64,000 nt of DNA from a virus. Below the pieces are notes generated by a model that saw only the letters and a program-made list of their open reading frames with translations, was not told the origin of the DNA and did no database searches. Of the stretch, positions 14,053 to 30,906 are shown piece after piece. Each line of letters opens with the position of its first letter. Position 1 is the first letter of the stretch. The position numbers were made by a program, and so were the translations under genes. Location of the stretch: the IMG/VR virus record IMGVR_UViG_3300035669_000001, positions 13,901 to 77,900 of that record, one strand, 5' to 3'.

Positions 14053-16050
14053 GTGAGTATCGACCAGTCCAACTACGCCCAGATGGTGGACGTCACCCAG
14101 GAGGGTGAGGTCAAGCAGCTGCCTGTCGGCGGGATGTTCGACGAGATGGGCGGGACCGGGCTCAAGCGCTCTGCGGGGGTCATCGACGAGGAGTTCATGC
14201 CCGCCCTCCGGGGCACCAAGGGCGTCGCGGTCTTCCGGGAGATGTCGCTCAACGACTACACCGTGGGCTCGTTGCTGTTCACGATCGAGATGCTGCTGCG
14301 CCAGATCGACTGGACGGTGACCGGGGACGACACCTCACCGGAGCAGTCAGAGGCTGTGCAGTTCGTGGAGGAGTGCATGGACGACATGTCCCACTCCTGG
14401 AACGACATGATCGCCGAGATCCTCTCGATGCTCACCTACGGGTGGGCCTGGCACGAAATCGTCTACAAGAAGCGGGTAGGGCCCTGGGAGACCGACCCCA
14501 AGAAGCGCTCCAAGTTCACCGATGGCCGGATCGGGTGGCGCAAGATGCCCATCCGGGCCCAGGAGACGCTGTTCCGGTGGATCTTCGACGTCGACGGCGG
14601 CATCAAGGGGCTCGTGCAGATCCCTCCCCCGGACTACACCCAGCGCACCTTGAGCATCGAGAAGGGCCTGCTGTTCCGCACCGGGATCCACAAGGGCAAC
14701 CCCGAGGGCCGGTCAATCCTTCGGAACGCGTACCGCCCGTGGTACTTCAAGAAGCGCCTGGAGGAGTTCGAGGCGATCGGGGTCGAGCGTGATCTTGCGG
14801 GCCTTCCATTCGCCAAGATCCCCAGCCGGCTGATGGACCCGAACGCCTCCCCTGCTGAGAAGCAGATGTACGCAGCGTTCAAGAAGCTCGTGGCCAACGT
14901 CCGGCGGGACGAGCACGAAGGGGTAGTGATTCCCAGCGACGTCGACGCCGAATCCAAGGCCCCCAAGTACGACTTCCAGCTCCTCGCCTCCGGGGGCAGC
15001 CGCACCTTCGACACCAACGCGCTGATCGGCCGCTACGAGCTGGCCATCCTCTCGACCGTTCTGGCCGACTTCCTCAAGCTGGGTCACGAGGGTCAGGGCT
15101 CCTACGCCATGCACGTGGACAAGACCGGCATCTTCCGGGCTGCTCTCAACACCATAGCCACTGCCATCGCCGACGTCTTCAACCGCTACGCGATCCCGAG
15201 GCTGTTCGCGGCCAACTCCTGGAAGCTGGACAAGCTCCCCAAGATCGAGCCCTCCAACGTCGACCCGCCCAACCTGGCCGAGCTGGGCCAGTTCATGACG
15301 TCCATGGCGGGCCTGGGGATGACCTTCTTCCCCGACCCCGACCTCGAGAAGTACCTGCGTGACACCGCGCACCTCCCCGCCCTCTCAGAGGAGCAGGAGG
15401 AGATGCACCGGATGATGAGCGAGCAGGCCAACGCGATGGAGTTCATGGGGGCCAAGCAGAAGGCCGAGATGGTGGGCCAGGGGATGACCCCCGAACAGGC
15501 CCAGATGCAGTCGGAGATGCCCACCCCGGAGATGCAGGCCCAGGATCCCCAGGCCCAGGCGACCAACCAGAAGATGCAGATGGACCAGGCGGCCTCTGAG
15601 CAGAAGATGGCCCAGGAGGCACAGTCCCACTCACTGCAGCAGGCCACCCAGGCCCAGGGGCTGGAGCAGGCCACCAAGGAGACCGACCTCAAGGCCAAGC
15701 AGGGCGAGGCCGAGCTGGCGACCGAGATGAAGCGGATGCAGATGGAGCTCGACGCCATGAAGGCCAAGATGGGCCTGGAGGCAGAGGGTTCCAAGCAGAC
15801 CCTGGACGCCAAGGCCAAGGGCTCCGCGCTCGACCTCAAGGCCAAGGAGGCGAGCACCAAGGCCGACCTGGACGCCAAGAGGCGGGGCAACGTGATCGAC
15901 CTGAAGGCCAAGCAGGCCCAGGCGAAGCTGCGTCCACAGCCGGCCGCAGGAAGGTCCAAGGGACGCGGAAGGGTGAGCAAGAACGGCAATCTCGGGCCTT
16001 CCAACGGCTGGGGCTGGCCGAACGATGACAACCCGTTCCGTAGGTCCTGA
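14053..16050 (+). CDS. Portal protein with Gln/Ala/Met-rich coiled-coil C-terminal extension
   Basis: Mu gp29/DUF935-type portal features (YGWAWHEIVY, GNPEGRSILRNAYRPWYFKK, IGVERDLAGLP) and position before the head genes. Confidence 0.88.
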   Translation: MSIDQSNYAQMVDVTQEGEVKQLPVGGMFDEMGGTGLKRSAGVIDEEFMPALRGTKGVAVFREMSLNDYTVGSLLFTIEMLLRQIDWTVTGDDTSPEQSEAVQFVEECMDDMSHSWNDMIAEILSMLTYGWAWHEIVYKKRVGPWETDPKKRSKFTDGRIGWRKMPIRAQETLFRWIFDVDGGIKGLVQIPPPDYTQRTLSIEKGLLFRTGIHKGNPEGRSILRNAYRPWYFKKRLEEFEAIGVERDLAGLPFAKIPSRLMDPNASPAEKQMYAAFKKLVANVRRDEHEGVVIPSDVDAESKAPKYDFQLLASGGSRTFDTNALIGRYELAILSTVLADFLKLGHEGQGSYAMHVDKTGIFRAALNTIATAIADVFNRYAIPRLFAANSWKLDKLPKIEPSNVDPPNLAELGQFMTSMAGLGMTFFPDPDLEKYLRDTAHLPALSEEQEEMHRMMSEQANAMEFMGAKQKAEMVGQGMTPEQAQMQSEMPTPEMQAQDPQAQATNQKMQMDQAASEQKMAQEAQSHSLQQATQAQGLEQATKETDLKAKQGEAELATEMKRMQMELDAMKAKMGLEAEGSKQTLDAKAKGSALDLKAKEASTKADLDAKRRGNVIDLKAKQAQAKLRPQPAAGRSKGRGRVSKNGNLGPSNGWGWPNDDNPFRRS

Positions 16051-19000
16051 TGCCCTGGGAGCGCACCGGCAGCGGCTACAAGACCGCCAAGGGCGGCTTC
16101 GTCCGTAATCCTGGTCAGTACGAGACCCTTAGGTCCAAGGGGATGTCCAAGAGACGTGCGGCCATGATCTCCAACTCGGTGGGCAAGTCCTACATCGGCG
16201 GCAAGTTCGTCCGGGCGGTGGACCTGACCGCCGAGCAGCGCAAGGTCCTGGGCGCAGGCAAGTACATCCTTTACCGCGGCCGCAACAAGCATGTCAGCAG
16301 AGGTCTTGAGAGGTTCGGACCGAACAACCAATGGAGGCAGTCTCGAGGAGCCAGCGGCAACCGGGGCACCCACCTCAACGAGTACAGGGCAGGGTGGAGC
16401 GCTACCAAGAACGTCGTCGCAGCGCCAGGGAACATGGGTGGTGCTCGCCGGAACAAGCAGGCGTACCGCCGGCTTGAGCAGGTCAACGGGGAGACCAACA
16501 CCGCTGCCTTCACCATCCGTACCGGGTCCAAGAGCACAGGCAAGTCCCACGTCTTCTACAACCGGAAGCGGATGCAGGAGGCCGAGAGTCATAAGCCCGG
16601 CTACCTGGCTGCCGTAGCTCCACACGAGCACGCCCATGCCGCTCCCAAGAGGTCCGGCTACCGGCTCTTCCAGGTCATCCAGGACCCTGCCACGCTGGGA
16701 CGCGAGGAGGCCAGGGCGGACTTCATCGCCTCAGGTGGGAAGCCGGTCAGGGGGCTGAAACGCACGTCCTTCTACGCCCACAACGCCCTGCGGGATCGAC
16801 AGGCGTCCAAGTACAAGTACGTGAAGGACGTCGGGGGCAAGCAGGGCGAGTTCGGTGCGTCCTACATCGCGCACACCCGGATGCTGCACAACAAGATCAG
16901 CAAGCCAAAGAAGGTGTCCAAGGCGTTCGGCGGGGTCAAGCGGGTGGCAGGAGCCTTCGCCAGGAAGCCCACAGCAGAGGCCGCGACCTTCGTGGACAAC
17001 CGGGTGGCTCAGGTTGCTCCCGGGATCACCAGGGCCGCTGCACCGCCGAAGAACGCCACCCAGTCACTGGTCAGCGACACGTTGGCCCACATCAACCGGG
17101 TCAAGGCCAGCCCTCCTGCTGCTGTCCCCTTCGCCCCGCACAAGCCCAAGACCATCGGGTCACTGGGGGCCGAGTGGCATCCCAAGCCACAGGCAGCCGC
17201 TGCGTCCGGGGCTCTCAGCTTCAAGGGCCACAAGGCGCCTCCGCTGACCAAGCCCGCACCAGCGAAGGCAAAGCCTGTTCAGGCACCCCCACCCGCTGCT
17301 CCTCGGCTCTCCCGTGTTGGTGCCCAGCGGAGCAGGTCGGGGTTCCAGGGGTTCACCCGGAGGCCCAGGGTTGTTCCTGCGGCCCCCAGTGCCCCTCCCA
17401 GGGCCGCTCCTGCAGTCACCAGGCCACCTAGTGCCCAGCCGGTGAGCACACCGACCCAGGCTCCGCGTGGCAACGGCCGGCGCAACGCCGGCATTGCAGC
17501 AGCCGGTGCAGGTGCGGTAGGTCTTACCGGAGCAGCGGTCTACTCGAGGAGGAAAAAGGTGGACGGCGTATCAAAGGCGTTCTCCCTACGCGGGGTCGCC
17601 CCGCGCCGGATGGGGGTCAACGTCGGCCAGCATGCCGGTGTGAACACACCACGCAGGGCCGGTGGCTTGTCGAGCATGTTCCAGCGGGGCAGTGCGCCGA
17701 AGCGCGCCATGCAGGCAGGCTCGCGGGAGATGGGTGTCGCTGCCAGCCCTCGTCGGCTGATGGGTCCAGGTGCCGCCCCAGGTGGCGGCATCAACCCCCG
17801 CGGGACTGGACGCCCTGCCAGTGCTGTGGGCCGTCCAGGACTGGCTGCTGCTCCCTCGGTGGCCGCCGGTGGTCCTGCCGCGGCCGCACCCAAGGTGGGA
17901 GGCATCGCCCGTCCGGTCGGTTCCGGCAGCAGGCCGGCGCCGAAGACCGGCGGGATGGCCCGGCCCTACGCCCCGGTGCCCAAGCCTCCGGTGACCACTC
18001 CCAAGCTGCCAGGGGCTGCTGCAGCGCGTCCGTACGCGCCTGTCCCTGTCGCTCCGAGGACCAGCAACCGGAACCGTAACCTTGCCCTGGGAGCAGGCGC
18101 TGTGGGTGCTGGCGGGCTCGGCATGGCCGGTGGTGCTCTCGGGCAGCGCAAGGTCCGCAAGTCCTTCTCGCCCAACCAGGCACGAGACGAAAGGGGCAGG
18201 TTCATGCCCATGGTGCAGATGCTCCAGGTCAACGACTTCGAGCAGACCGAGGACAACGTCGAGAAGAAGTTCGACCGGACCGACAAGATCATCGCCGGAC
18301 TGTCAGCAGTCGGGTTGGCCGGTGCCGGGGCTGCCGCCTACAAGGGCAACAAGGAGGCCAAGCGTCTGGGTGGCACGAAGGGACTCACCACCAAGGAGAA
18401 GATCTTCGGTGTCCGGGGCAAGGTTGCCCAGTGGGCCGGTACCGAGAAGCCCAAAGGTTGGAAGCCCTCGGACCGGGTGCACAAGTCTCTGCGGGTCACA
18501 GGGGCACGTCGGCTCCCGGGGTACAAGCCACATCCTGACGACGTGGAGGAAGCGGTCGCCCTGGCACGCAAGCAGTTCCCCGGTCGCAAGACGACCAAGA
18601 AGGAGGTCCTGGAGGAGCTTCAACCCTCTGGTGGTCTGGGTGGTGTAGCAGGTAGGGGCTTCGGGGCAAGGTCGAACCGCATCTCCAAGGGCTCTCCCGA
18701 CATGGCCGACGTCCACATCGAGGGTGTGCTGCGTCCGGTCGGCAAGATGCGTCGTGCCCGGGTGGAGAAGGGCATGGTCGTGGTGGGCAAGGCCGACGAG
18801 CCCCGCAAGCCCGGCCAGTGGAACGCCAACCAGCGTGCTGGCGCTGCTGGACTGGTGAGCACGTTGGCCGGTGGTGCCATTCCCCTCGGGGTAGGGATCG
18901 GCGCTGGCAGTGCTGCGCGCAAGGGCAAGCGGTTCAAGACCGGCGGCAACGCCTTCGTCCGCACCGGCGCGGAGGGCGGCGTCGGGGGTGCTGTGGGAGC

Positions 19001-19139
19001 AGGTGCGGGTATGTTGACCCGCAACCGTATGGCTACGAAGATCGGCGCAGCTCTCGGTGGAGGTGTCGGGACCGTCCACGGTGCCAATCGGTCGATCGCC
19101 AACTCACGTCGCAAGGGATACCTGAGGAGCGGTTTCTAG
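16050..19139 (+). CDS. 1029-aa modular basic protein; putative protease-processed internal head polyprotein
   Basis: Modules separated by [VI]xK motifs. Contains HEHAH..EE, Gly-zipper segments, RDERGRF and PDMADVHI. Confidence 0.6.
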   Translation: MPWERTGSGYKTAKGGFVRNPGQYETLRSKGMSKRRAAMISNSVGKSYIGGKFVRAVDLTAEQRKVLGAGKYILYRGRNKHVSRGLERFGPNNQWRQSRGASGNRGTHLNEYRAGWSATKNVVAAPGNMGGARRNKQAYRRLEQVNGETNTAAFTIRTGSKSTGKSHVFYNRKRMQEAESHKPGYLAAVAPHEHAHAAPKRSGYRLFQVIQDPATLGREEARADFIASGGKPVRGLKRTSFYAHNALRDRQASKYKYVKDVGGKQGEFGASYIAHTRMLHNKISKPKKVSKAFGGVKRVAGAFARKPTAEAATFVDNRVAQVAPGITRAAAPPKNATQSLVSDTLAHINRVKASPPAAVPFAPHKPKTIGSLGAEWHPKPQAAAASGALSFKGHKAPPLTKPAPAKAKPVQAPPPAAPRLSRVGAQRSRSGFQGFTRRPRVVPAAPSAPPRAAPAVTRPPSAQPVSTPTQAPRGNGRRNAGIAAAGAGAVGLTGAAVYSRRKKVDGVSKAFSLRGVAPRRMGVNVGQHAGVNTPRRAGGLSSMFQRGSAPKRAMQAGSREMGVAASPRRLMGPGAAPGGGINPRGTGRPASAVGRPGLAAAPSVAAGGPAAAAPKVGGIARPVGSGSRPAPKTGGMARPYAPVPKPPVTTPKLPGAAAARPYAPVPVAPRTSNRNRNLALGAGAVGAGGLGMAGGALGQRKVRKSFSPNQARDERGRFMPMVQMLQVNDFEQTEDNVEKKFDRTDKIIAGLSAVGLAGAGAAAYKGNKEAKRLGGTKGLTTKEKIFGVRGKVAQWAGTEKPKGWKPSDRVHKSLRVTGARRLPGYKPHPDDVEEAVALARKQFPGRKTTKKEVLEELQPSGGLGGVAGRGFGARSNRISKGSPDMADVHIEGVLRPVGKMRRARVEKGMVVVGKADEPRKPGQWNANQRAGAAGLVSTLAGGAIPLGVGIGAGSAARKGKRFKTGGNAFVRTGAEGGVGGAVGAGAGMLTRNRMATKIGAALGGGVGTVHGANRSIANSRRKGYLRSGF

Positions 19140-19142
19140 GCC

Positions 19143-21221
19143 ATGACCCAGCCCAAGGTCGTGATCCACGGGAAGTTCGAGGACGGAGACCTCCCCGCCC
19201 AGGGGACGCTGACGTTCTCCGACTTCGCCTTCTCCACCGACACGGTGGAGAACGTCATCCACGTCCCCCACACGGAGAAGGCCTACCTCGACCAGAACGG
19301 TGAGTTCTGGGTGGAGCTGCCCCTGAACGTGGGCATCAACTCCACCCCCACGCCCCGCCGGTACTCCGTGGACATCGCCGTCTCGGGGTTCGCCGACTCC
19401 TGGGAGTTCGTGCTCGACCCGACTTCCCTGCAGGTCGAGCTCTCCTCCCTGATGCCGGTCAACGCCCCGCCGGTGATCCCCTACCAGTACGTCTCCTCGC
19501 TGATGGGCATGACGGGCCCGATCACCTACTCCGACTTCATTGAGCGCGTCCCACAGCTGGCCCCGGACGCCGGCAAGAGCGCCTACGAGCTCTGGGTGGA
19601 CCAGGGCAACACCGGGTCGTTCTCCGACTTCCTGGACGACATCTCAGGCCCTCCTGGGATCATGGGGCCGCGCGGTGCCCAGGGAGACATAGGCACCGAG
19701 GGCCCACGGGGGCTGAGAGGCCCGGCTGGACCCCAGGGCAGGCCCTTCCACCTCGACGCCATCGTGATGACCGAGTCGGCTCTCAGTGGCGGTGGAGGGG
19801 TGCTCACCGACGACGAGCAGACCGTCCTGATGCCCAAGTGGAGCATCGTCGCCGTCTTGGAGAACCAGTCCTTCTACCACTTCGACGGGGTCGAGTGGCG
19901 CAACCTCGGCTCCTACAAGGGCGCGCAGGGGGAGCCGGGCAACACCCCGACCGCGGCCGACCTCGGGCTCGGGACCTTCGTGGGCCTCACCCCGGCCACG
20001 ATGCCCATCCCCGGCTCGGTGCAGATCGCCCTGAACACCCTGGCGGCCAACGTGGGCCAGGTGCAGAGTGTCAACGGCCAGGTCGGTGAGGTGGAGATCG
20101 GCGCGGACGACGTGGGTCTCGGCAACGTCGCCAACCTGGCTCCCTCCCAGATGCCCGTCTCGGCCGACACCCAGGCGGCCCTGAACGCCCTGAGCGTCCT
20201 GCTGGGGGGCAAGGAGCCCCTGCTGCCCTCGGGCGGCACGGTGACCACCTTCCTGCGCGGGGACAAGTCCTGGCGCACCCTGATCCCCGCTGACGTGGGT
20301 CTGGGGCAGGTGCGGAACTTCGCCTCGATGAACGTGCTGGGCTCGGTGAGCCTGGACGCCGTGACCTCCACCGGCACCTACCACCAGCCCTTTGACACGG
20401 TCGCCTCCACCGACCTGGGCTACCCGGTGAACAGGGCGGGCTTCCTGGTGGTGGTGGCCAACAACGACGGCACCAAGATGGTCGCCCAGAGCTACACCAC
20501 CTACGGCTACGCGGGGTCGGAGTCCCGGGTCTATCTGCGCGCGATCTACGCCACCAACTCCTGGGGCCCCTGGCGGCAGGTCTACACCTCATCGGGTGCT
20601 GACCCCTTCACGGCGCAGTCCTACCGGGGCACCTCGGGTGGAGGGGTGTCAGCCTCCGGTGTGGTGCATGCGCGGTCCTTCGTGGCCAGTGCGGGCATCT
20701 CGGCTTTTGACCTGGACTCCGCAGCAGGGGTGACGGTGTCCTACCCGCTGGCCCCGGTGGTCGGCACCCTGCCGGACGCCTTCCCACAGGGGTACTCGGT
20801 CTGGCGCCTGCAGGCCGGTGCAGCCGGCAGCCCCACCGGCTACCCGGTTCTCTCGGGCACACTGGAGAGCTACCGCAACACCTTCTACCCCAGGCAGCGC
20901 CTCACAGCAGTCGACGGCACGGTCTACACCAGGACCTTCTCGGGAACCTGGTCGCCCTGGAAGGTCAGCGACAACCTCCAGTTCCTGGCCGGTCAGGTGG
21001 CCATCCTGCCCTCTGCCATCGACGTCCCCACCTCGGTGGTGGTCAACCTTCCGGCTGGGAGGTTCAGCGTCCCGCCTGTTACCGTCGTCTCGGCCAACTC
21101 CTCGGTGCCCGACCGGATCCACGTCAGCACCCAGCTCGCCACGGTGGACTCCTTCACCGTCACCATGACCCGGTCGTCCGTGGCCAACACCTTCATCAAC
21201 TGGCTGGCCGTAGGAGTCTGA
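19143..21221 (+). CDS. Fibre / receptor-binding protein (short collagen, pyocin-knob-like domains, C-terminal H-lectin/gp53-like domain)
   Basis: Gly-X-Y stretch, VQSVNGQVG and DVGLGNV repeats, YxR...WGPW knob motifs twice, and ends INWLAVG. Confidence 0.75.
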   Translation: MTQPKVVIHGKFEDGDLPAQGTLTFSDFAFSTDTVENVIHVPHTEKAYLDQNGEFWVELPLNVGINSTPTPRRYSVDIAVSGFADSWEFVLDPTSLQVELSSLMPVNAPPVIPYQYVSSLMGMTGPITYSDFIERVPQLAPDAGKSAYELWVDQGNTGSFSDFLDDISGPPGIMGPRGAQGDIGTEGPRGLRGPAGPQGRPFHLDAIVMTESALSGGGGVLTDDEQTVLMPKWSIVAVLENQSFYHFDGVEWRNLGSYKGAQGEPGNTPTAADLGLGTFVGLTPATMPIPGSVQIALNTLAANVGQVQSVNGQVGEVEIGADDVGLGNVANLAPSQMPVSADTQAALNALSVLLGGKEPLLPSGGTVTTFLRGDKSWRTLIPADVGLGQVRNFASMNVLGSVSLDAVTSTGTYHQPFDTVASTDLGYPVNRAGFLVVVANNDGTKMVAQSYTTYGYAGSESRVYLRAIYATNSWGPWRQVYTSSGADPFTAQSYRGTSGGGVSASGVVHARSFVASAGISAFDLDSAAGVTVSYPLAPVVGTLPDAFPQGYSVWRLQAGAAGSPTGYPVLSGTLESYRNTFYPRQRLTAVDGTVYTRTFSGTWSPWKVSDNLQFLAGQVAILPSAIDVPTSVVVNLPAGRFSVPPVTVVSANSSVPDRIHVSTQLATVDSFTVTMTRSSVANTFINWLAVGV

Positions 21222-21222
21222 C

Positions 21223-21765
21223 ATGGGTCGTCTGGTCGAGAGACTGAGATGGCTTGCATCCAAGCCACTGCTGTTCGGGCACTGGATTGTGGAGAAGATC
21301 GACGACTCCAGGATCAAGGCGTGTCCGGTCACCCGGGCCCTGATCCGGCTCATCTCCTCGGCGACCTTCGTCTACGCGATGGCGATCATGGTCGGTGGTG
21401 AGAAGCGCTGGTCCCAGGTCACCTACTCGGTCCTCAACCAGTTTCCTGGTTCTCCGTACAGCTGGGCCTCGATCCTGATGACCACGACGGTGATGGTGAT
21501 GGCCGGGTCGCTGCTGGCCTCGCACGACCACTCCTGGGGCCAGTGGCTGAAAGACGCCGGGTTCTTCCTCGGGTGCCTGTGGTGGATCACCTTCGGGCTC
21601 TGCGTGGCCAGCGCGGTCACCCCCACCAACTCGGTGCCCTTCTCCACTGCGGTATTCCCGTTGCTGCCTATCGTCGTCTACGTCTGTCTGGGCATGGTCG
21701 ACGAGCGCAACTCCTTCGACGACGAGGAGATCTTCGCCAGGCCCTACCACTCACACCCCGCGTAG
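21223..21765 (+). CDS. Four-TM membrane protein (holin-like)
   Basis: Four hydrophobic segments. Confidence 0.6.
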   Translation: MGRLVERLRWLASKPLLFGHWIVEKIDDSRIKACPVTRALIRLISSATFVYAMAIMVGGEKRWSQVTYSVLNQFPGSPYSWASILMTTTVMVMAGSLLASHDHSWGQWLKDAGFFLGCLWWITFGLCVASAVTPTNSVPFSTAVFPLLPIVVYVCLGMVDERNSFDDEEIFARPYHSHPA

Positions 21766-21773
21766 GAGCCGCC

Positions 21774-22235
21774 ATGATCCAGAAACACTCCATCCCCTCG
21801 CCCAACCCTGTCGCGTTCGGGATGAGCGTTCTGCTGATGGTGGCGTTGGTACAGATAGCCAGGGGCCAGGGTGACGTGCCGGTCTCTCTCCAGGAGATGC
21901 CTACCACCGGGATCGTCGCGCTCTACGGGATGGCACTGGGCTGCCTGATGGTCATCGGGGGCAGCGCGTTCCAGGTCCCGTCGCGCTTCCTCTCGCTCCG
22001 CACCAGGATCAACGGCTTCTGGGTGGAGTTCTTCGGCAGTGTGCTGGTCGGCTTCGGTACGGTGGCCTACTGGCTGGCGATCTACCTGGTCAACCCGGTG
22101 CAGGGCACCCTTGCGGGGTTCTCCAGCGCCTGTCTCACACTCATGTTCTGTGGTCGGGGGATCCAGATCATCCGTCTCGTCCTCCGAGTGGGGAGGGAGG
22201 CGGATGCTCTCCGGGCGAAGGAGTCCCTCGAGTGA
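21774..22235 (+). CDS. Four-TM membrane protein (holin-like)
   Basis: AGGAG RBS before ATG 21774 and four hydrophobic segments. Confidence 0.6.
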   Translation: MIQKHSIPSPNPVAFGMSVLLMVALVQIARGQGDVPVSLQEMPTTGIVALYGMALGCLMVIGGSAFQVPSRFLSLRTRINGFWVEFFGSVLVGFGTVAYWLAIYLVNPVQGTLAGFSSACLTLMFCGRGIQIIRLVLRVGREADALRAKESLE

Positions 22236-22639: not shown

Positions 22640-22654
22640 TGGGAGAATCCTGGT

Positions 22655-25438
22655 ATGGCGTTCAACGAACACTGCGCTCAGCGCGTCTACGACATCGTCT
22701 CCAAGATGGACGACGACGAGGCCCAGATGTTCGGCCTCCTGGTGGCCCACGACGTGTGGTCGCGTGACGTCCGGGCCAACGAGCGGTACCTCCGCCGGCT
22801 GAAGGACTCCTACGATGCCGAGGTCACGGACACGGTTGCCAAGGCCCTCCTCGAGCACCTGGACGAGGGCGGCGACCCTGAGGCTGCTGTGGCGGTCGCA
22901 GCGGCTGTGGCAGTCGCGAAGGACGACGACGACTGGTGGAAGTTCCAGGAGCGCGACAAGCAGGGTCGCTTCGGCCGGATGACCGGTGCCCAGTACCGGG
23001 CCAACCTGAAGGCGATCAAGGCCAGTGCCAAGCTGACCCAGGCTGAGCGCAAGGCGCAGCTGAAGGACGCCAGGTCCGGACGGGCCAACTACCTCAGCGG
23101 CTCGGGGCTCTACGTCGACGTCAAGGGAGGCGGTCAGGGAGTCGTCCGAGGTACCCAGAGGTTCGAGCAGGACTGGAACCGCCCACCGGACGAGGAGTCC
23201 AACGCCACCACCACCTTCAACCGGCTGAAGACCGGCGGCCAGACGGTGCAGGCCATCGGCGCCGCCACGGGCAGCCAGAAGCTAGCCATCGCGGGTGCGG
23301 TGGGCAACTACGCCGGTCAGTTCGGCCCGGAGGCCGAGAAGGTCGTCGGGCCCTCCATCCGGCGGACCGCCTACCGCTACCGGGGGACAGAGCGTCGTCC
23401 CGACGCTGCCTACGTGCAGATCGCCCAGGCCAACCTCAACGAGGTCAAGCGTGAGGGGCAGCCGGTCACTGCGGAGCAGAAAGCCTTCGCGGCCGAGACC
23501 GCGGCGATCCGGTACTTCCTCGGTGACGACCCGACGGCTGGCAAGCGGGGCGGTGGCTCACGCATCCCCAGTGCGAAGCTCTCCGGGCTGCACCGCGCCT
23601 CGGGCCGGATCACCCCCTCCGAGGGCATCATGATCGACGCCAACGGCAACATCGCCCACCAGGCGGTCGGCTACGGCGAGGACCACTACCTGCCCTTCAA
23701 CCTCAAGAACCTCTCCGCGCTCAAGGGCGGCTCCTACATCCGGACGCGCGAGAGCGGCGGTCTGACCACCGAGGACATCTACACCGGTCTGGTGGCCGGT
23801 GCGCGCTCGATGACGGTGGTGAGCAACTCCGGGGTCTTCACAGTGGACTACGCCGACGACCTGCGCGGAGGCAGGCGCTACAACGACAAGGCCCGGCAGA
23901 TGGTCAGCCGCTACGGCCAGACCCTGGACGCGATCCAGTCCGAGAAGGTGGCCAACCCGGAGCGCGGCCTGTCCTCGCGGGAGAGGGCGAAGATCCAGGT
24001 CGAGACCGAGCAGAAGATCAACGAGGACCCGATCCTGCGGTCCTTCCCCGACGACCAGAAGAAGTCCTGGGTCAAGGAGGCGATCCAGCGCGCCGAGTCC
24101 ACCACCCAGCTGTCCGAGGACGAGATCGCCGAGATCGACCGGAAGTCCAAGGAGCAGGGCAAGACCAAGTCCGACCAGGACATCTTGTTCCGTCAGCTGT
24201 ACGACGAGAAGATCGACGCGGTCAGCCGCCGGCACTACCGGTTGGACGGTGAGGGTTACGCCACCTCGATGGAGGCGCTGCGCGAGCAGTTCCCCTACTA
24301 CATCTCCAACATCAGCTACCGCACGGTCAAGAGCAACGACTCGCTGGCTCCCGACAGGTTCAACCGGGCCACCGACAAGGGCTACGTCAAGCCGCGGTTC
24401 AACCGGCCCGAGGGAGCCCAGTCGGGCTACTACGACGACACCATCACCGGCAGGGGCAAGACCAGCGCCGACCGGACGGACTACCAGAACTGGCGGGTCC
24501 GGGCCAAGCGCGGGGGAGATGTTGCGGCTGTTGCGGATGTTGCGGCAACCACGGGTGCCCCCAACAGCATGAAGGCCACCCAGGACAAGTTCGCGGCCGA
24601 GGCCAAGGAGAAGGCCGGCGACCCGTTGATGAACAACGCCATCATCTCCGACGCCGACTCCCTCAAGGCCACCCACGAGGCCTCCCGCGAGGCCAAGGCC
24701 GGTGGCATCGGGATGCAGTACGAGGGTGTGCACGAGTGGTTCAACGCCGACGACTCCGAGCGGCACGCCATCATGGCCGACCCGGCCCGCAGGGCGAAGC
24801 TCAAGGCCGACATCACCAAGGTGAAGCGGGACTACGCCAAGGAGTTCGGTTCCTCCGCGCCGCAGAACATCGAGTTTGCCGAGAAGAAGGCGAAGACCGC
24901 CATGATGAGCGACGAGGTCCTCGCGGCCGAGAAGGCCCCGGACACCCCGCTGCGGATCACCGACGAGCAGTTCGAGCAGGCGGCTCAGACCGACCACATC
25001 CGCAACCTCACCCAGCAGGAGGACCACGACCTGCAGGCGATCAGCCAGGACCTGCGTACCCAGCGCGCCCTCACGGCGAAGGCGGGCAACGACAAGGAGA
25101 CCACGTCGCTCACCCAGCAGATCACCGCGCTGGAGTACGCCCGCGCCCTCAAGGCCCGCACCACCGAGGTGCCGACCGACGTCTACGCCGAGATCGCCCA
25201 GCGCACCAGCCCGACCAAGGGCACGCTCACCCCGGTGCCGAAGGTCTCGTCGAGGGCCACGCTCACGTCCACCCAGGCCACTGAGCAGGTCCGCCGGCTG
25301 CACAACCAGCACCGGCTCGGGCTGATCGACGCCAACGAGTTCGAGCGGAGCGTCAGAGAGGTCATCGAGGACTCCGACATGGACGATAACGAGAAGCAGG
25401 TTGAGTACCGCCGTGCTACCGGGAACATCATGCGGTGA
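22655..25438 (+). CDS. 927-aa putative internal head protein with a degenerate JAB/MPN-like domain
   Basis: N-terminal VxK sites, RDKQGRF, and EGIMIDANG...LKGGSYIRTRESGGLTTEDI. Confidence 0.55.
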   Translation: MAFNEHCAQRVYDIVSKMDDDEAQMFGLLVAHDVWSRDVRANERYLRRLKDSYDAEVTDTVAKALLEHLDEGGDPEAAVAVAAAVAVAKDDDDWWKFQERDKQGRFGRMTGAQYRANLKAIKASAKLTQAERKAQLKDARSGRANYLSGSGLYVDVKGGGQGVVRGTQRFEQDWNRPPDEESNATTTFNRLKTGGQTVQAIGAATGSQKLAIAGAVGNYAGQFGPEAEKVVGPSIRRTAYRYRGTERRPDAAYVQIAQANLNEVKREGQPVTAEQKAFAAETAAIRYFLGDDPTAGKRGGGSRIPSAKLSGLHRASGRITPSEGIMIDANGNIAHQAVGYGEDHYLPFNLKNLSALKGGSYIRTRESGGLTTEDIYTGLVAGARSMTVVSNSGVFTVDYADDLRGGRRYNDKARQMVSRYGQTLDAIQSEKVANPERGLSSRERAKIQVETEQKINEDPILRSFPDDQKKSWVKEAIQRAESTTQLSEDEIAEIDRKSKEQGKTKSDQDILFRQLYDEKIDAVSRRHYRLDGEGYATSMEALREQFPYYISNISYRTVKSNDSLAPDRFNRATDKGYVKPRFNRPEGAQSGYYDDTITGRGKTSADRTDYQNWRVRAKRGGDVAAVADVAATTGAPNSMKATQDKFAAEAKEKAGDPLMNNAIISDADSLKATHEASREAKAGGIGMQYEGVHEWFNADDSERHAIMADPARRAKLKADITKVKRDYAKEFGSSAPQNIEFAEKKAKTAMMSDEVLAAEKAPDTPLRITDEQFEQAAQTDHIRNLTQQEDHDLQAISQDLRTQRALTAKAGNDKETTSLTQQITALEYARALKARTTEVPTDVYAEIAQRTSPTKGTLTPVPKVSSRATLTSTQATEQVRRLHNQHRLGLIDANEFERSVREVIEDSDMDDNEKQVEYRRATGNIMR

Positions 25439-27606
25439 GCGTCCCCGCCTTTGACCAGGAGCCACTGACGCCCCAGGAGGCCTACCAGGTCGACTACGTC
25501 ATCCGAGGGGCACAGGGGGGCTCCACGCTGGCTGTGGCGGCCGCACTGGGCGGGGCCTTCCTGGTGTACCGGGCGTACATGCGGAGACGCCTGCGGGAGC
25601 GCATGGGCTCGCTGGAGGGCACCACGCCCGAGGAGGTGATGCGCGAGACCAACCAGGTGTTCTCCACCTTCATGCCCACCTGGACGGCGATGGCCGCACC
25701 TGCTCTCTTGCAGGGCTACCTGTCCGGGGTGGCCGAGACGGAGTTCGGGCTGGACGAGGCGTTCCTGTCCGAGCTGGCCGATAACTACGCCTACTCCCTC
25801 GGGATGCACATCAACCAGGTCTCCGGCGACGCTCTCGTGCGCGGGTACGCGGCCCAGGTGAACCGGAAGGTCCCGGCCAAGGTCGCCCTGGGCAACGTGA
25901 TCGACGCGGTCGGGGTGACCAACTCCCACATGCGGACTCTGAACGTGATGCTCTCGGGCAAGGAGGACGCCAAGCTCAGCGAGACCCTGATCCCCTCGGT
26001 CAAGAAGGCCAGGGCACAGCGCCAGGTGATGGCCGCCCTCAACCAGCGCGCCGAGGTGATCGGCGACTCGGAGTCCTGGAACGCCAAGCAGCAGGGCAAG
26101 CAGATCGCCTGGTTGTACGCCCAGCGTCAGGGGTTCATCCCCTCCACCGCTACCCGGGAGTGGATCACCGCCGACGACGAGCGGGTCTGCCCGTCCTGCG
26201 GCCCGCTGCACAAGGTGGAGCTGCCGGTCGCCGAGCAGTTCGACATCCCGAACGTCGGCAAGTTCTGGTCCCCGCCCGTGCACCCGAGGTGCCGCTGCGA
26301 CGTGCGTCTCAAGGTCGGCCTGGGGCAGATCATCGCCAACAACGTGGTCTTCGGGCAGTTCGGCCGGCAGTGGCTCAAGCCCGACGACGTCGAGGAGGTC
26401 GGAAAGTCCGACAACCCCCACGACAACGACTGGGACACCCAGCCGAGACAGAAGACCGGCAGGTTCGGCGCGCGTCCTGAGGTTCGTTTCAAGGAGGCTG
26501 ACGTCGACCTCGATGCGGCCATCGCCCAGGCCACCCAGGCGGCGCAGATCGAGGACGCGGTACCCAAGGGTCCGATCCTCGGGCGAACGGTGCTGGGAAA
26601 GCCAGGGGTGATAGGCGAGACGACACTGGGCAAGCCTCCGGTGCTCGGCCAGGTCGTCCTCGGCAAGCCTCCTGTCCTCGGCGGGTCCAAGCTCGAGTCG
26701 CAGGGTCTGCAGGCCCAGCGGATGAAGTCTCACGCCCTGCAGGGCCGCAAGCTGGACAAGAGCAAGCTGGACCATGCCAGGCGGATGGCCCGGGCCGAGA
26801 TGGACGGCCGGATCATGGCACTGCCCGGGGACATCTCGGGCACGGTGGTGGACGACGAGGTCAAGGCACCCGAACCCGACTACTCCGACCTGGTGCCCAC
26901 TCCGGAACCCATGTTCGCCGTTGCCGATCCGCGTTGGGTTATTCGTGGACCAAACACCGACTCGCGTTCAATCAACGCTTCCAACGGTATGTACCGGCTG
27001 GACGGAGCCGAGGTGATAGGCGGGGTGGACAAGCTCCAGGCCAAGATCGAGGAGCTCGAGGCCGAAGCTGACGACGAGTACCTGGAGTACCTCTTTGACA
27101 GTAATGAGGCGAGCTACTTCGACAACGAAACCGGTTGGGAGAGTCCCGTCCCCGAGCACGTCTACGCCGCAGCTATGGAGTGGGTTCGGGCCCAGGAACA
27201 GACAAACATGGCGGTGGCGGACTTCACGGTCGAGCTTGATGCGTACGGGCCGCTGTGGACCAAGGACGGCACGCCGGTGGAGGGAGGGTACAACCATCCT
27301 GACTACGAGGCCCTCTACGAGAACGGGGATATTGAGTTTGACCTGGTTGACAGCCAGTACGTGCAGATCTCTGACATCGCGGACAAACTGAGTCTTTGGG
27401 AGCACGTCAGCGATACTCAGCCCCGGATCATCCAGCTGGACAAGGTCAGGGGCAACGACGTCGACTACGACCCTGACGGTGCTCCTTATGCCCAGGTGAG
27501 CGATAGCTACAAGATGGACGGGATGTCCACGGTCACCATCAACGGGAGGCACTATGTGACCGCCCGACTCGAACCGGCCTGGCTGGACGAAGGCGGGAGA
27601 ATGTAG
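25435..27606 (+). CDS. MuF-like (SPP1 gp7 family) minor head protein with long C-terminal extension
   Basis: REWITADDERVCPSCGPLH...PPVHPRCRC. Confidence 0.85.
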   Translation: MSVPAFDQEPLTPQEAYQVDYVIRGAQGGSTLAVAAALGGAFLVYRAYMRRRLRERMGSLEGTTPEEVMRETNQVFSTFMPTWTAMAAPALLQGYLSGVAETEFGLDEAFLSELADNYAYSLGMHINQVSGDALVRGYAAQVNRKVPAKVALGNVIDAVGVTNSHMRTLNVMLSGKEDAKLSETLIPSVKKARAQRQVMAALNQRAEVIGDSESWNAKQQGKQIAWLYAQRQGFIPSTATREWITADDERVCPSCGPLHKVELPVAEQFDIPNVGKFWSPPVHPRCRCDVRLKVGLGQIIANNVVFGQFGRQWLKPDDVEEVGKSDNPHDNDWDTQPRQKTGRFGARPEVRFKEADVDLDAAIAQATQAAQIEDAVPKGPILGRTVLGKPGVIGETTLGKPPVLGQVVLGKPPVLGGSKLESQGLQAQRMKSHALQGRKLDKSKLDHARRMARAEMDGRIMALPGDISGTVVDDEVKAPEPDYSDLVPTPEPMFAVADPRWVIRGPNTDSRSINASNGMYRLDGAEVIGGVDKLQAKIEELEAEADDEYLEYLFDSNEASYFDNETGWESPVPEHVYAAAMEWVRAQEQTNMAVADFTVELDAYGPLWTKDGTPVEGGYNHPDYEALYENGDIEFDLVDSQYVQISDIADKLSLWEHVSDTQPRIIQLDKVRGNDVDYDPDGAPYAQVSDSYKMDGMSTVTINGRHYVTARLEPAWLDEGGRM

Positions 27607-27608
27607 CC

Positions 27609-28460
27609 ATGGACGTACTGGAGGCTCTGCGCGCGCACGGTGAGGCTGGGGCGGCTGTCGTGGACCTGCTCTACGGCGAGGGTGCGGAGGAGGTTGTCAA
27701 GGCTCTCAGTGAGGACCGCAAGCGGAAGATCGCCACCGCCTCCAACGTGGTCGGGATCGGCGCTGGGCTGGCTGCCATCCCCGGTGCCACCCGCGACTTC
27801 CGGAACGCCGCGAAGACTGCCAGGGGTGCCAGTGACAAACCGGTCGGCGTCCTGAAGCCGGTGGGCAAGATCCGGGGCAACATCCGCGGTGGTCTCAAGG
27901 CCACCAAGAACTTCCTGGGCAAGCCGAAGACCGCGCTGGCACTGGCCGGCGGCGGTCTGGCCCTGCAGGCGGGGAACGTCGGCGGGGACTTCGTGACCAA
28001 CCAGGTCCTCCGCGCCGACCAGAAGAAGTCGGGCGTCTCCAAGGGGCTGACCGACATCGAGTGGACCGGCGAGTTCTCCAAGATGGACACCGACAAGCGC
28101 CAGGTGTTCGGGTGGGCCTCGGTCACCGCGGTCGACGGCGTCCCGGTGACCGACCTCCAGGAGGACGAGATCGACCTCGAGGAGATCGAGAAGGCCGCCT
28201 ACTCCTACGTGGCCAAGTCCCGGGTCGGCGGCAACATGCACAAGAAGACCATCGACGGCTCCCCGGTGCACGTCTCCGACATGATCGAGTCCTTCGTGGT
28301 CACCCCGGAGAAGAAGCAGACGCTGCACCTGGGCAACGACACCCCGGAAGGGTGGTGGGTCGGCTTCCAGGTCAACGACGACGAGACCTGGGACGCGGCC
28401 AAGAACGGCGAGCTGGTGGGCTTCTCGATCCACGGAACGGGAAAGAGGCGTGACGGCTGA
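27609..28460 (+). CDS. XkdF-like prohead (capsid maturation) serine protease with N-terminal extension
   Basis: QVFGWASV..DLQED..EEIEKAAY..NMH..IESF..GWWVG..W...KNGELVGFSIHG. Confidence 0.85.
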   Translation: MDVLEALRAHGEAGAAVVDLLYGEGAEEVVKALSEDRKRKIATASNVVGIGAGLAAIPGATRDFRNAAKTARGASDKPVGVLKPVGKIRGNIRGGLKATKNFLGKPKTALALAGGGLALQAGNVGGDFVTNQVLRADQKKSGVSKGLTDIEWTGEFSKMDTDKRQVFGWASVTAVDGVPVTDLQEDEIDLEEIEKAAYSYVAKSRVGGNMHKKTIDGSPVHVSDMIESFVVTPEKKQTLHLGNDTPEGWWVGFQVNDDETWDAAKNGELVGFSIHGTGKRRDG

Positions 28461-29689
28461 TGCCCATGGTGAAGCTGGTGTTCGTCCCGGAGACGACGAA
28501 CAAGCCGACCAGGCAGTCCCACAACATCGTGGCGCTGCCCAAGATCGAGCCTCTGCAGGGCAAGGGGAAGCCCCAGTTCGGGCGCAACGGCAAGCCGGTC
28601 AGCAACGTCTCCGATGCGCTGTTCGGGCGCGGGGGAGGCGTCCACACCGACGTGATCCGCAAGGCCCTGAGCAGGGAGCAGAAGGTGGGCGTGGGAGCCG
28701 CCGGCGTGGTAGGTGCCGGGCTGGCAGCAGGTTCGGTCGGACGAGCGGTCAGATACGGCGGCCAGGCGCGCAACGCCTTCCGGGTGGCCCAGGGTTTTAG
28801 TCATGGCCCCGCCCACCAGGCCGGGGCCACCCTCAAGCAGTACGGCGCACATCGCAGGAAGATGGCTCTCCGCAACGTGGGTGCGGCGACAGTGGCGGGC
28901 GGGCTCCTGGCTGGCGGTACGGCCGCCACGATGTCCAGTGCCAACGCAGCGAACCAGCGCCGCACCGGTGTGGCCAAGATGAGTGACGCGGAGCTTCGCC
29001 ACCGCAAGCGCGTCCAGGCCGGGATCAGCATCGGCACCTCCACCCTCGGTCTCTCCGCGCTGGGGTCAAAGGCCGGGGCCGGTGTGCTCCGCAAGCTCAA
29101 CAAGGCCCCGGGTGCGGCCCATCGGCTGGACAAGGCAACCACCAACCTGCTCACCAGCGGTGCAGGACTGGGTGGGGTCGGTGGGTTCAACTTCGCCTCG
29201 GTGCAGCGCCAGGAGGCCAGGAAGCGGACGCCGGTGGTAAAGGCTTACGACCCCGAGCGCAACCGGGAACGCAGGGCCAGGCAGGAGGCCAAGGTGGCAG
29301 GAGTCGTCGGAGGTGCAGCGTCCGGCGGTGCGCTAGCGGCTGGAGGTCTCGCAGCACGACGTGGGTTTCAACGCCGGGACGAGACCACCCGGATAGGTAG
29401 TCCGGTGGAGCTCGAACAGGAGGTTCTCCCCGGTGGCGGCAAGACCCGACTGGACCCGAGGGGGCGAGTTCACCACGGGCCTGCTCGGAAGTTCCGGACG
29501 GCGAACTTCGGGGAGAAGATGTCCTCGGCGACCAAGGTCAAAGGGCTCAAGGCCAGCCAGGTGAGGGCGGGCAAGGTCGGTGTCGGACTGGCCGCGCTGG
29601 GCGTCGGCGGGCTGGTTGCGTCGGACCGGATCGCCTCCTACTCCCGGGGGAAGGGGCGGAAGTACTCACCCCGGTTCAAGCGGGACTGA
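28460..29689 (+). CDS. 409-aa cationic Gly-zipper protein; putative polyprotein
   Basis: Three Gly/Ala hydrophobic plus Arg/Lys modules delimited by IRK|A, VAK|M and VVK|A. Confidence 0.55.
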   Translation: MPMVKLVFVPETTNKPTRQSHNIVALPKIEPLQGKGKPQFGRNGKPVSNVSDALFGRGGGVHTDVIRKALSREQKVGVGAAGVVGAGLAAGSVGRAVRYGGQARNAFRVAQGFSHGPAHQAGATLKQYGAHRRKMALRNVGAATVAGGLLAGGTAATMSSANAANQRRTGVAKMSDAELRHRKRVQAGISIGTSTLGLSALGSKAGAGVLRKLNKAPGAAHRLDKATTNLLTSGAGLGGVGGFNFASVQRQEARKRTPVVKAYDPERNRERRARQEAKVAGVVGGAASGGALAAGGLAARRGFQRRDETTRIGSPVELEQEVLPGGGKTRLDPRGRVHHGPARKFRTANFGEKMSSATKVKGLKASQVRAGKVGVGLAALGVGGLVASDRIASYSRGKGRKYSPRFKRD

Positions 29690-29727
29690 ACGGGTTGCAG
29701 GCTAAGACAGAATTGTGGGTGAGGAAC

Positions 29728-30906
29728 ATGCCAAAGCTCAGTGATCTGAACATCGACGAGGTCAGCCTCGTGCGCAAGGGCGCCAACCAACATGCCCGGG
29801 TGGCAATCGCGAAGTCAGCAGGAGGAGAAGTGGACGAGGAGTACTTCGACCAGGAAGGAAACGCGGTCGACGTCGAGGAGCTCGAGCATGGCGACATCGT
29901 CTTCGACTCTGACGGTGAGGCCTACCAGTACGACGAGCCTGGTGACGATGACGACGAGGTCGAGAAGGCCCTGTACGTCGGTGGCCGCGAGGTCACCAGC
30001 CGGGTCGGACGTGCCGCTGGCAAGGCGTACATCGGAGCCGGCCGCAAGGCCAAGTCCGCCAACAAGTTCCGGATCCAGACAGGTGCGATTGCCGGGCAGG
30101 CAGCCCGCAGGGGCGCCAAGCGTGTATCCAGCGCTGCCGGTACGGGTGCCGGGTTCGTCGCCGGCAACGCCAAGCGTGGTGCAGGGGCAGTGGCGGGAGC
30201 CGCACGTAGCACCGGCACGGCAGCCGGGAACGCGGGCAACGCCATGGGCGGGGCGATCCGCGGGGCCGCGGCGCAGACCGAGGGCTTCCTGCGCACCGAG
30301 AACAACGCCTTCAACACCCGCGGCCGGATCGGCGCCCTCGGTGCCGGTGGTGTGCTCGCCGGTGCCGGTGGCGGCTACGCGGCAGGCAGCAACGGCCGGG
30401 TCCGCAAGAGCGCGTCCGACGACCTCCGGGAGGAGCTCTCCAAGGCACTCACCGACGACGACCGGGACGAGGTGATCGCGAAGGCCTTCGGGTACGTCGA
30501 ACAGGCCGAGCAGGTCGCCCAGGAGGCCTGGGAGATCGCCGAGGAGGAGCGGGAGAACCGCCGGGCTGCGGAGTTCTACGAGGTGGCCAAGTCCTACGAC
30601 ATGGTCCCGGTGGATACCGAGGACCTCGCGATCGCCATGATGCACATGGCCGACCTGCTGCCCGAGGAGGACGTGCAGGTCATCGCCAAGGCCCTGGGCT
30701 TTGCGGCCGACGTGGCCGACGAGCTCTACGAGGAGCAGGGCAACGTGGGCGGTGGCGACAACTCCGACGTGATGGAGCAGCTGCAGACGTTCGCGCGCAA
30801 CCGGGTCGCCAAGTCCGGTGAGGGCTCAGCCGAGCAGTACCTGGTCGATGCCCTCAACCATGACCCAGCGGTGTACGACCAGTACCTCGCGGACAACAGC
30901 CGCTGA
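29728..30906 (+). CDS. Scaffolding protein
   Basis: GAGGA RBS; N-terminal DEVSLVRKGAN; acidic helical body with repeated xxK|S/A; C-terminal DPAVYDQY. Lies just before the capsid genes. Confidence 0.75.
   Translation: MPKLSDLNIDEVSLVRKGANQHARVAIAKSAGGEVDEEYFDQEGNAVDVEELEHGDIVFDSDGEAYQYDEPGDDDDEVEKALYVGGREVTSRVGRAAGKAYIGAGRKAKSANKFRIQTGAIAGQAARRGAKRVSSAAGTGAGFVAGNAKRGAGAVAGAARSTGTAAGNAGNAMGGAIRGAAAQTEGFLRTENNAFNTRGRIGALGAGGVLAGAGGGYAAGSNGRVRKSASDDLREELSKALTDDDRDEVIAKAFGYVEQAEQVAQEAWEIAEEERENRRAAEFYEVAKSYDMVPVDTEDLAIAMMHMADLLPEEDVQVIAKALGFAADVADELYEEQGNVGGGDNSDVMEQLQTFARNRVAKSGEGSAEQYLVDALNHDPAVYDQYLADNSR

Follow-up and report, generated by a model that had tools for sequence, protein, structure and literature searches.

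The gp21 protease of phage T4 cuts gp22, the internal proteins (IPs) and Alt at the sequence I/L-x-E. In HK97, the last cut that the protease makes in gp5 falls at Phe-Asn-Lys103↓Ser104 and the scaffold moiety is degraded into small pieces; no cargo cassettes are known from this system. The proteases of giant phages cut after Glu (S/A/G-x-E) in T=27 myovirus heads. The scaffold domain of HK97 spans 102 residues (PMC12749128). For the giant phages phiKZ and SPN3US, published accounts describe how gp175 and gp245, respectively, process numerous head and ejection proteins at a short consensus and how proteins packed along with the DNA lose propeptides (PMC10052503, PMC7411985). A preprint on proteases and the cyclic oligonucleotide-based antiphage signaling system (CBASS) is confined to T4 gp21. 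Where MuF-domain and portal-linked head proteins carry effector modules, release of these modules by embedded or C-terminal assemblin-like peptidases has been proposed (Iyer, Burroughs, Anand, de Souza, Aravind 2017, PMC5512222). Here we describe the head module of an uncultured soil phage, contained in a stretch of 64,000 nucleotides (hereafter the window; bases 13901-77900 of IMG/VR record IMGVR_UViG_3300035669_000001), in which a short motif, [Val/Ile/Leu]-x-Lys followed by a small residue, recurs in the proteins that occupy the interior of the head. This motif is probably the cut-site code of the XkdF-type head protease encoded in the same module, which would cut after the Lys (marked below by an arrow).

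The initial annotation had listed 26 occurrences of the motif at compositional boundaries of the head-region proteins, and all 26 are present in the sequence. They lie at K40, K91, K238, K250, K263, K299, K332 and K373 of the scaffold (403-residue numbering), K31 (VVK↓A) and K145 (VSK↓G) of the protease, K68, K173 and K261 of gp28460, K324 of the MuF-type head protein, K17, K63 and K89 of gp22655, K643 of the portal, and K46, K291, K509, K704, K739, K812, K880 and K914 of gp16050. The scaffold also has VRK↓G at K28, which is absent from that list, and the protease has further sites at K195 and K203 within its catalytic domain. One listed site, K739 of gp16050 (VEK↓K), falls outside the set of P1' residues that the initial annotation had stated.

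Enrichment was assessed by shuffling residues within each protein, which preserves composition. The scaffold has 8 sites where 0.65 are expected (p<5e-4), gp16050 has 9 (2.7 expected, p=0.0015) and the protease has 4 (1.0 expected, p=0.013). Pooled from portal to scaffold, the genes carry 31 sites versus 10.1 expected, compared with 22 versus 16.4 in the remainder of the window and none versus 2.2 in the tape measure protein. Because the motif would otherwise be judged on the data that had suggested it, a second version, [VIL]xK[SAN], was derived from other genomes only and then applied to the window. Six internal head proteins hold 25 copies of this independent motif where 8.8 are expected (p<5e-4), a roughly threefold excess. 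The counts are 1 versus 1.5 for the portal, 1 versus 1.9 for the shell and other head proteins, and 25 versus 18.8 (p=0.11) for all other genes of the window. Enrichment of the internal head proteins over tail and early proteins is borne out, and no excess is seen in capsid, cement, tail or early proteins.

The pattern is present in hundreds of relatives of this phage. Head modules of relatives were collected from the IMG/VR loci of scaffold homologues, with up to 10 kb of upstream sequence included, and 80 related loci share the gene order portal, gp22655-like protein, MuF protein, protease, a variable gene (130-860 aa), scaffold, cement protein and capsid protein. Across the family the motif is enriched 12.8-fold in scaffolds, 3.2-fold in proteases, 2.5-fold in portals and 2.1-fold in gp22655-like proteins (115 sites versus 54.8 expected). 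It is depleted in capsid proteins (0.61-fold; 22 sites versus 36 expected), in cement proteins (0.25-fold) and in gp33601 (0.16-fold). The window's own capsid protein has 1 site versus 0.46 expected.

The gene for the XkdF-type protease (27609..28460, plus strand) encodes a catalytic domain preceded by a long N-terminal extension. The domain (28044..28460, plus strand) matches the prohead serine protease family Peptidase_S78_2 (Pfam PF14550) over residues 155-280 with 69.2 bits against a cut-off of 24, and with 71.1 bits in an own-genome search. An exhaustive profile search recovered 7028 cluster representatives of XkdF-type proteases at E<=0.001. In an AlphaFold model of the protease, residues 146-283 have block-mean predicted local distance difference test (pLDDT) values of 70-91, and the closest structure is the T4 gp21 protease (5jbl_A; Z 8.9, root-mean-square deviation 2.6 over 114 residues), with the next, unrelated match at Z 4.9. 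Foldseek alone gave a weak match (E 0.19), and a sequence search of the PDB with the protease returned nothing meaningful. H211 and S273, the latter within the sequence FSIHG, are invariant in alignments of 36 and 23 sequences and are likely to be the catalytic pair. Judged by their spacing, they would correspond to H85 and S140 of T4 gp21. The domain also has invariant acidic residues at D182, D186, E194, E227 and D257. The open reading frame (ORF) terminates 10 residues past S273, and the protease ORFs of relatives likewise stop about 10 residues past the FSIHG serine.

The N-terminal extension (residues 1-145; 27609..28043, plus strand) consists of an acidic leader with a net charge of -5 that runs to VVK↓A31, followed by a basic cassette with a net charge of +15 that runs to VSK↓G145 and carries one Gly/Ala hydrophobic segment. 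The two sites thus divide leader, cassette and catalytic domain. The segments of the model with pLDDT below 50 are exactly residues 32-61 and 78-145, so that the low-confidence portion starts just past K31 and ends at K145. These charge switches, and those in the scaffold described below, confirm the claim that sites coincide with compositional boundaries.

Evidence that does not depend on prior choice of the motif comes from the boundary of the catalytic domain. In 167 distinct homologues we took the Lys nearest upstream of an anchor in the catalytic domain, a choice made independently of the motif. At P3 of this boundary Lys, V occurs in 52%, L in 14%, I in 14%, Y in 6% and F in 5% of the sequences; at P1', S occurs in 49%, A in 17% and N in 10%; and P2 shows no preference. 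These extensions contain 3689 other Lys residues, at which V occupies P3 in 9% and S occupies P1' in fewer than 6%. On the other side of the domain, all 25 homologues that continue for at least 30 residues past FSIHG carry the motif 7-16 residues past it, at the joint with a fused cargo. In P0332 and P0335, for example, the protease continues at its C-terminus through PIAK↓S or AFAK↓A into a gp28460-type module. The catalytic domain is thus flanked by the motif on both sides, which is the pattern predicted if the protease releases itself.

The scaffold gene (29695/29728..30906, plus strand) begins at either of two starts, and both 403-aa and 392-aa numberings are in use. Its first 29 residues from the ATG at 29728 form an N-terminal tag (29728..29814, plus strand) of the type L.IDEVSLV..GANQH..V.IAK↓S, in which D, E, S, V and N are invariant in the homologue alignment; the tag is disordered when folded alone. 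A small beta domain with an acidic tail follows (29815..29967, plus strand), which has a net charge of -21 and ends at VEK↓A. There it joins a basic Gly/Ala/Arg cassette of 147 aa with a net charge of +20 (29968..30408, plus strand), which extends to VRK↓S. Past this site the protein is acidic again and forms a helical core (30409..30906, plus strand) with the sites LSK↓A, IAK↓A, VAK↓S, IAK↓A and VAK↓S. In the predicted structure, K239, K288 and K362 (392-aa numbering) are the final residues of helices, and three sites lie in disordered parts.

The scaffold has at least 157 homologues. Searches with tblastn against cultured phages and a single-sequence scan of viral contigs returned no match to it, and an alignment-based scan of viral contigs returned 126 matches. 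Seven of the eight listed sites are retained in 28 full-length homologues with 31-44% identity (BLASTP). At the AK↓SY site the motif is kept but has moved by one residue in five homologues. The acidic domain of relatives terminates at [VI]GK↓[ASGN]. Short scaffolds of about 270 aa differ from long ones of 350-420 aa by a basic Gly/Ala/Arg cassette of 100-150 aa, which is inserted exactly between ..VGK↓, at the end of the acidic N-domain, and ..xK↓S..ELSK↓A. Together with the protease-cargo fusions, this indel bears out the expectation that gain, loss and fusion of modules take place precisely at sites.

A further line of evidence involves the major capsid protein (31363..32358, plus strand), which has 331 aa, belongs to the lambda-E-like fold family and matches phrog_1005 (1.6e-82). 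Between ISK↓G (K880) and VGK↓M (K899), gp16050 carries a 19-residue peptide (18690..18746, plus strand) whose first 10 residues, GSPDMADVHI, copy, in the same register, the Met-less capsid N-terminus PRPDMADVHI (template at nucleotides 31366-31395). The capsid protein of relatives starts with M-PNPTQSDLHV, and the extensions of their proteases hold the pattern hydrophobic-x-K↓xxP..[SA]D[LV]H[VI]. When this N-arm pattern was sought outside capsid proteins in the collected loci, Lys was found at position -3 from the Pro in 7 of 11 hits (binomial p=7e-7). Among 170 protease homologues there were 62 hits, of which 60 have Lys at -3 and 60 have V/I/L/F at -5. Removal of the initiator Met by methionine aminopeptidase is expected when position 2 is Pro. 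A cut after the Lys that precedes the copy would therefore produce an N-terminus in the register of the Met-less capsid protein. Because the capsid protein has nothing upstream of its N-arm, a cut site is the best explanation for the conserved hydrophobic-x-Lys ahead of the copies. In the window, the protease has kept the VVK↓A31 site and lost the N-arm copy, which is found in gp16050 instead.

A recent DNA duplication was considered as the origin of the copy in gp16050 and was rejected, given that 4 of the 8 identical codons differ silently. Copies of the N-arm after sites were also seen in the related loci L030, L037, L053, L057, L064, L080, L081 and L082 and in proteins within the series P0244-P0356. 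A sequence search of the PDB with the capsid protein returned only 3bjq, which comes without capsid context.

The motif also appears beside a second portable element. In gp16050 (nucleotides 18153..18203, plus strand) a composite VRK↓S...RDERGRF is found, and the same element occurs in gp22655 (nucleotides 22913-22972) and in the MuF-type protein (nucleotides 26398-26466). In 21 MuF homologues, 9 gp22655-like proteins and 2 protease homologues, RDxxGRF or HPRxxxGRF stands 8-18 aa past a hydrophobic-x-K↓. The element stands directly past the MuF domain in MuF homologues and near the N-terminus in gp22655-like proteins.

The conserved head protein gp22655 (22655..25438, plus strand; 927 aa) has homologues in 35 loci, which follow the portal in relatives and hold 3-8 sites in their N-terminal regions; its K17 site is conserved as [LI]V[MS]K↓MDD. 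The MuF-type head protein (25435..27606, plus strand; 723 aa) matches Pfam Phage_Mu_F with 28.0 bits, under the cut-off of 29.6, and has several phrog head-morphogenesis matches. Its site VGK↓S324 lies just past the MuF domain and ahead of the GRF element, and this position is conserved in 21 homologues. No known effector domains were found in the proteins of the window. A conserved octapeptide of the type SAFGVVHK/SAWGVISK was observed between two sites in MuF and gp28460-like ORFs of L009, L021, L023, L024, L025 and L069. It would be freed as an 8-residue peptide or may be part of a longer recognition sequence.

Two further genes have the appearance of multi-module precursors. The net basic protein gp28460 (28460..29689, plus strand; 409 aa) has a leader (residues 1-68) and modules that start after IRK↓A68, VAK↓M173 and VVK↓A261, with four Gly/Ala hydrophobic segments. 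Its relatives match mostly residues 174-261, which is exactly one inter-site module, and many of them start with it. The basic mosaic protein gp16050 (16050..19139, plus strand; 1029 aa) has a DUF7218 domain at residues 18-47 that ends at VGK↓S46, 9 strict sites and four Gly/Ala hydrophobic segments. Among 5.8 billion proteins, no homologue of similar length was found other than gp16050 itself, and its only sites with outside support are those beside portable elements (K704, K880). Pfam gave no match for gp28460, the C-terminal parts of gp16050 and the MuF-type protein, the scaffold tag or the rest of gp22655.

Hydrophobic Gly/Ala segments were noted at 27729-27779, 28685-28735, 28877-28927, 29294-29344 and 29567-29617, in addition to the four in gp16050, and so occur in the protease extension, gp28460 and gp16050. 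They have Kyte-Doolittle values of 1.4-1.8 over 17 residues, are flanked by Arg/Lys and resemble transmembrane or glycine-zipper helices within very basic cassettes.

The initial annotation had described the head module as a protease-processed polyprotein system in which several uncharacterized genes are cassettes of peptides released at maturation. The polyprotein label does not hold, since the interval comprises nine separate genes. A multi-module precursor is suggested by the appearance of just four of their products, gp28460, gp16050, the protease and the scaffold; in relatives, protease and cargo are fused in one ORF. The cassette proposal does not extend to gp22655 and the MuF-type protein, where sites occur only in short linkers. 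Three genes within the same interval, gp19143, gp21223 and gp22232, have no sites.

The pattern recurs in distant systems that carry an XkdF-type protease. The protease of Roseobacter phage CRP-6, gp55, stops 9 residues past FSIGG, and the next gene encodes the scaffold gp54 (L084), which begins with an EVSLV-type tag ending in hydrophobic-x-K and has 6 strict sites versus 0.85 expected (p<3e-4). Rhizobium phage RHph_Y1_11 shows a weaker form of the pattern. A Hyphomicrobiales contig has a minimal protease, in which VLK↓T is followed by the domain, and a tagged protein next to it. In a prophage of Streptomyces levis JCM 6924 the order is a 677-aa protein, XkdF protease, tagged LysM protein, acidic scaffold, cement protein and capsid protein, and the scaffold has more than 10 hydrophobic-x-K sites by a looser marking pattern. 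The 677-aa protein (L089:2750-4783) carries an ADP-ribosyltransferase domain (Pfam ADPrib_exo_Tox, 22.9 bits, just below cut-off) between two K↓R..NPNQPRDxRGRW elements, and is a likely virion-delivered enzyme bracketed by putative cut sites. The tag L.IDE[VI]SLV..[GP]AN....V.I.K↓ heads the protein after the XkdF protease in the window, L084, L085, L088 and L089:5968-6720; in Streptomyces levis that protein is the LysM protein and not the scaffold. The motif thus accompanies the XkdF protease in hosts of different phyla, and the tag can move between proteins.

We therefore favor a model in which an XkdF-type serine protease with an assemblin/T4-gp21-like fold would be built into the procapsid and would cut after Lys in [Val/Ile/Leu]-x-Lys↓[Ser/Ala/Gly/Asn, sometimes Met/Thr/Asp]. 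The protease would free its own catalytic domain from the N-terminal extension and, in relatives, also from C-terminally fused cargo. Cuts at some 6-9 conserved sites would reduce the scaffold to pieces no longer than about 50 residues, which could exit the shell in the manner of T4 gp22 and the HK97 delta domain. Cassettes with basic Gly/Ala segments, carried within the protease and scaffold or as genes of their own (gp28460, gp16050), would be excised. In gp22655 and the MuF-type protein, an N-terminal carrier would be split from a C-terminal part that starts with the RDxxGRF element. A further cut would expose an N-terminus that copies the mature capsid N-terminus; it would fall in gp16050 in this phage and in the protease extension in relatives.

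Several observations somewhat dampen our enthusiasm for this model. The portal C-terminal site VSK↓N (K643, nucleotides 15979-15981) is absent from the C-terminal tails of 12 relatives, and K332 of the scaffold (403-aa numbering; K321 in 392-aa numbering) is not conserved in homologues and lies mid-helix. K252 of the scaffold (392-aa numbering) is likewise mid-helix in the predicted structure. Within the protease, K195 (IEK↓A) and K203 (VAK↓S) sit in a helix of the folded domain and are probably structural. Sites of the K↓M type, such as VAK↓M174 of gp28460, could represent the leftover start codon of a gene fusion. The motif is short and was defined by the initial annotation after inspection of the sequence, and enrichment across the family is weak in gp28460-like proteins (1.28-fold, z 1.8) and MuF proteins (1.5-fold). 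All family statistics count related sequences, and z-scores are thereby inflated. When every Lys of the window's four internal proteins is considered, only V at P3 stands out (22 versus 11.8), and no P3 preference is seen when all Lys in the extensions and gp28460-like proteins of relatives are pooled. The motif is therefore carried by some Lys residues and not by others, and the P3 signal emerges only when Lys residues are picked by position. Moreover, our literature search found no report on the cleavage specificity of XkdF-type proteases.

On balance, the proposal that the XkdF-type protease cuts after Lys draws support from enrichment, conservation, the position of sites at module joints, the boundary logo, the register of the N-arm copies and the distant relatives, and we set aside the portal-tail site, K332, K195 and K203 as members of the code. 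Conservation in homologues, which the initial annotation had put forward as a check, was seen for seven of the eight listed scaffold sites and fails for the first two of these four.

One alternative, which we regard as unlikely, is that the motif is structural and remains uncut. It would then reflect a tendency of acidic helical scaffolds and linkers to cap helices or form amphipathic ones in this way, kept for folding or shell binding. Several sites do fall in or at the ends of predicted helices, the strongest enrichment is found in one conserved helical protein whose sites are repeated by homology alone, and IEK↓A and VAK↓S of the protease domain are conserved sites buried within the fold. 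However, a structural role does not readily account for the motif in disordered linkers of unrelated proteins, or for its placement on both flanks of the protease domain, at cargo joints and at the bounds of indel cassettes. Its depletion in capsid and cement proteins also argues against such a role, and it precedes the N-arm copy in exact register, for which a free N-terminus is the simplest reason.

It is also quite improbable that the sites are cut by another enzyme, either a trypsin-like protease of the host or a possible zincin encoded by gp16050. The latter idea arises from an HExxH motif (HEHAH) at residues 192-196 of gp16050 (nucleotides 16623-16637), within the 245-residue segment from VGK↓S46 to VSK↓A291. 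Weak language-model neighbors include LPD23 and Peptidase_M78 clusters at 0.81-0.82, under the 0.9 trust mark, and among the domains of polyvalent phage proteins zincin peptidases occur most often (PMC5512222). The segment is possibly a zincin peptidase module; a Pfam scan of gp16050 detected no peptidase. Since gp16050 is unique to this phage, its HEHAH motif cannot explain a motif that is found family-wide. Furthermore, the motif always accompanies the XkdF protease, even in minimal systems that have no zincin, and flanks the XkdF domain on both sides.

That the motif is a chance or compositional artifact of high-GC phage proteins rich in Lys, Ala, Val and Ser, picked out by eye, is hardly credible: the motif is degenerate, with about 16 copies expected and 22 seen in the rest of the window, and two non-head ORFs (10130-11203, 59782-60402) also reach p<=0.012, but in composition-keeping shuffles the scaffold reaches p<5e-4, as does the internal set with a motif taken from other genomes, the pattern replicates in CRP-6, and boundary Lys residues are sharply unlike other Lys.

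With cleavage by the XkdF-type protease as the preferred explanation, we tentatively consider a broader possibility, namely that the Lys code is one part of a programmable cargo-loading system, shared by a very large group of XkdF-protease phages, that also comprises the EVSLV tag, the GRF element and the N-arm copy. In such a system, the EVSLV..K↓ tag, which heads the protein whose gene follows that of the protease, may dock onto the protease or complete its fold, the K↓..RDxxGRF element may head cargo modules, and the N-arm copy, which would be a true N-terminus only after the cut, could take the binding site of the capsid N-arm. A role for the tag in completing the protease fold is suspected because the protease ORF stops 10 residues past the catalytic Ser; the tag may serve as a docking peptide or supply a strand to that fold. 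Among 377 retrieved proteins, none combines the EVSLV tag with the protease domain in a single chain. A complex prediction for protease residues 146-283 with scaffold residues 1-85 scored 0.39 compared with 0.30 for a control, which does not discriminate either way. If this scheme is correct, membrane-active Gly/Ala-rich basic peptides and enzymes such as the ADP-ribosyltransferase and the LysM protein would be loaded, anchored or released in the head.

The remaining genes of the region complete the picture of the locus. The Mu-type portal gene (14053..16050, plus strand) encodes 665 aa and matches Pfam Portal_Mu (1.5e-31) and phrog_113. The genes from gp16050 to gp22232 are additional in the window, lying between the portal and gp22655, and relatives lack equivalents at this location. 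Among them, the interval 19143-22639 separates portal and head genes with gp19143 (692 aa; collagen- and tail-fiber-like, with only 10 Lys), the membrane protein gp21223, which has four hydrophobic segments, and gp22232, a 135-aa ORF between gp21223 and gp22655. A second collagen-repeat protein (520 aa) is encoded at 1298-2860. The large terminase gene (3161-4663) lies 9 kb upstream of the portal with many small genes between, as in Arthrobacter phages Laroye and Kovu. The cement protein (30930..31349; Phage_cement_2) is encoded between the scaffold and the capsid protein. The record from which the window is drawn is 77.9 kb long, is judged 97% complete and has a siphovirus-type genome; the G+C content of the window is about 65%.

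A working cut-site rule for XkdF-type proteases would allow the mature products of thousands of uncharacterized phage head genes to be predicted. It would also show which neighboring genes are capsid cargo, and where a carrier ends and its cargo begins. The N-arm copy in exact register offers a concrete hypothesis for how fragments might be held in the shell or compete within it. Basic Gly/Ala-rich cassettes in obligatory procapsid proteins represent a little-known class of probable virion-delivered peptides. The cut-site idea is directly testable in two cultured systems, Roseobacter phage CRP-6 and the prophage of Streptomyces levis JCM 6924.

The closest comparison is with T4 gp21, gp22, IPI-III and Alt. 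The protease fold is the same, and a hydrophobic-x-charged code is repeated in the scaffold core and at the starts of internal proteins. As in T4, a single consensus is shared by scaffold and internal proteins, with depletion in capsid protein, cement protein and gp33601 and no copies in the tape measure protein. In T4, extra proteins enter the head and are trimmed, and the protease trims itself; the same is predicted here. Unlike in T4, the predicted P1 residue is Lys rather than Glu, the Pfam family is S78_2 and not that of T4 gp21, the capsid protein is apparently uncut, and cargo cassettes are embedded in the protease and scaffold. The tags differ from the capsid-targeting sequences of T4 and comprise the EVSLV-type N-terminal tag, the RDxxGRF element and the copy of the capsid N-arm.

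The predicted hydrophobic-x-Lys↓Ser cut resembles that made by HK97 gp4 (MEROPS S78) at the gp5 delta domain, and the Pfam name Peptidase_S78_2 is related. However, the scaffold here is a separate gene, and the capsid protein has no delta domain and starts with the N-arm in the window and in 78 relatives. The giant phages would share the processing of many head proteins at a short consensus, but the present system belongs to a 78-kb siphovirus-type genome and its predicted code is based on Lys. As with the polyvalent and MuF-cargo proteins, an ADP-ribosyltransferase module is carried by the Streptomyces levis relative. Unlike in that work (PMC5512222), which names no cleavage motif, the modules found here are mostly small basic Gly/Ala-rich cassettes that belong to no known family and are spread over several genes. 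Relative to processing of the T4 and HK97 style, what is most likely new is a Lys code for a protease family that has no published specificity, together with embedded cassettes and three portable peptides.

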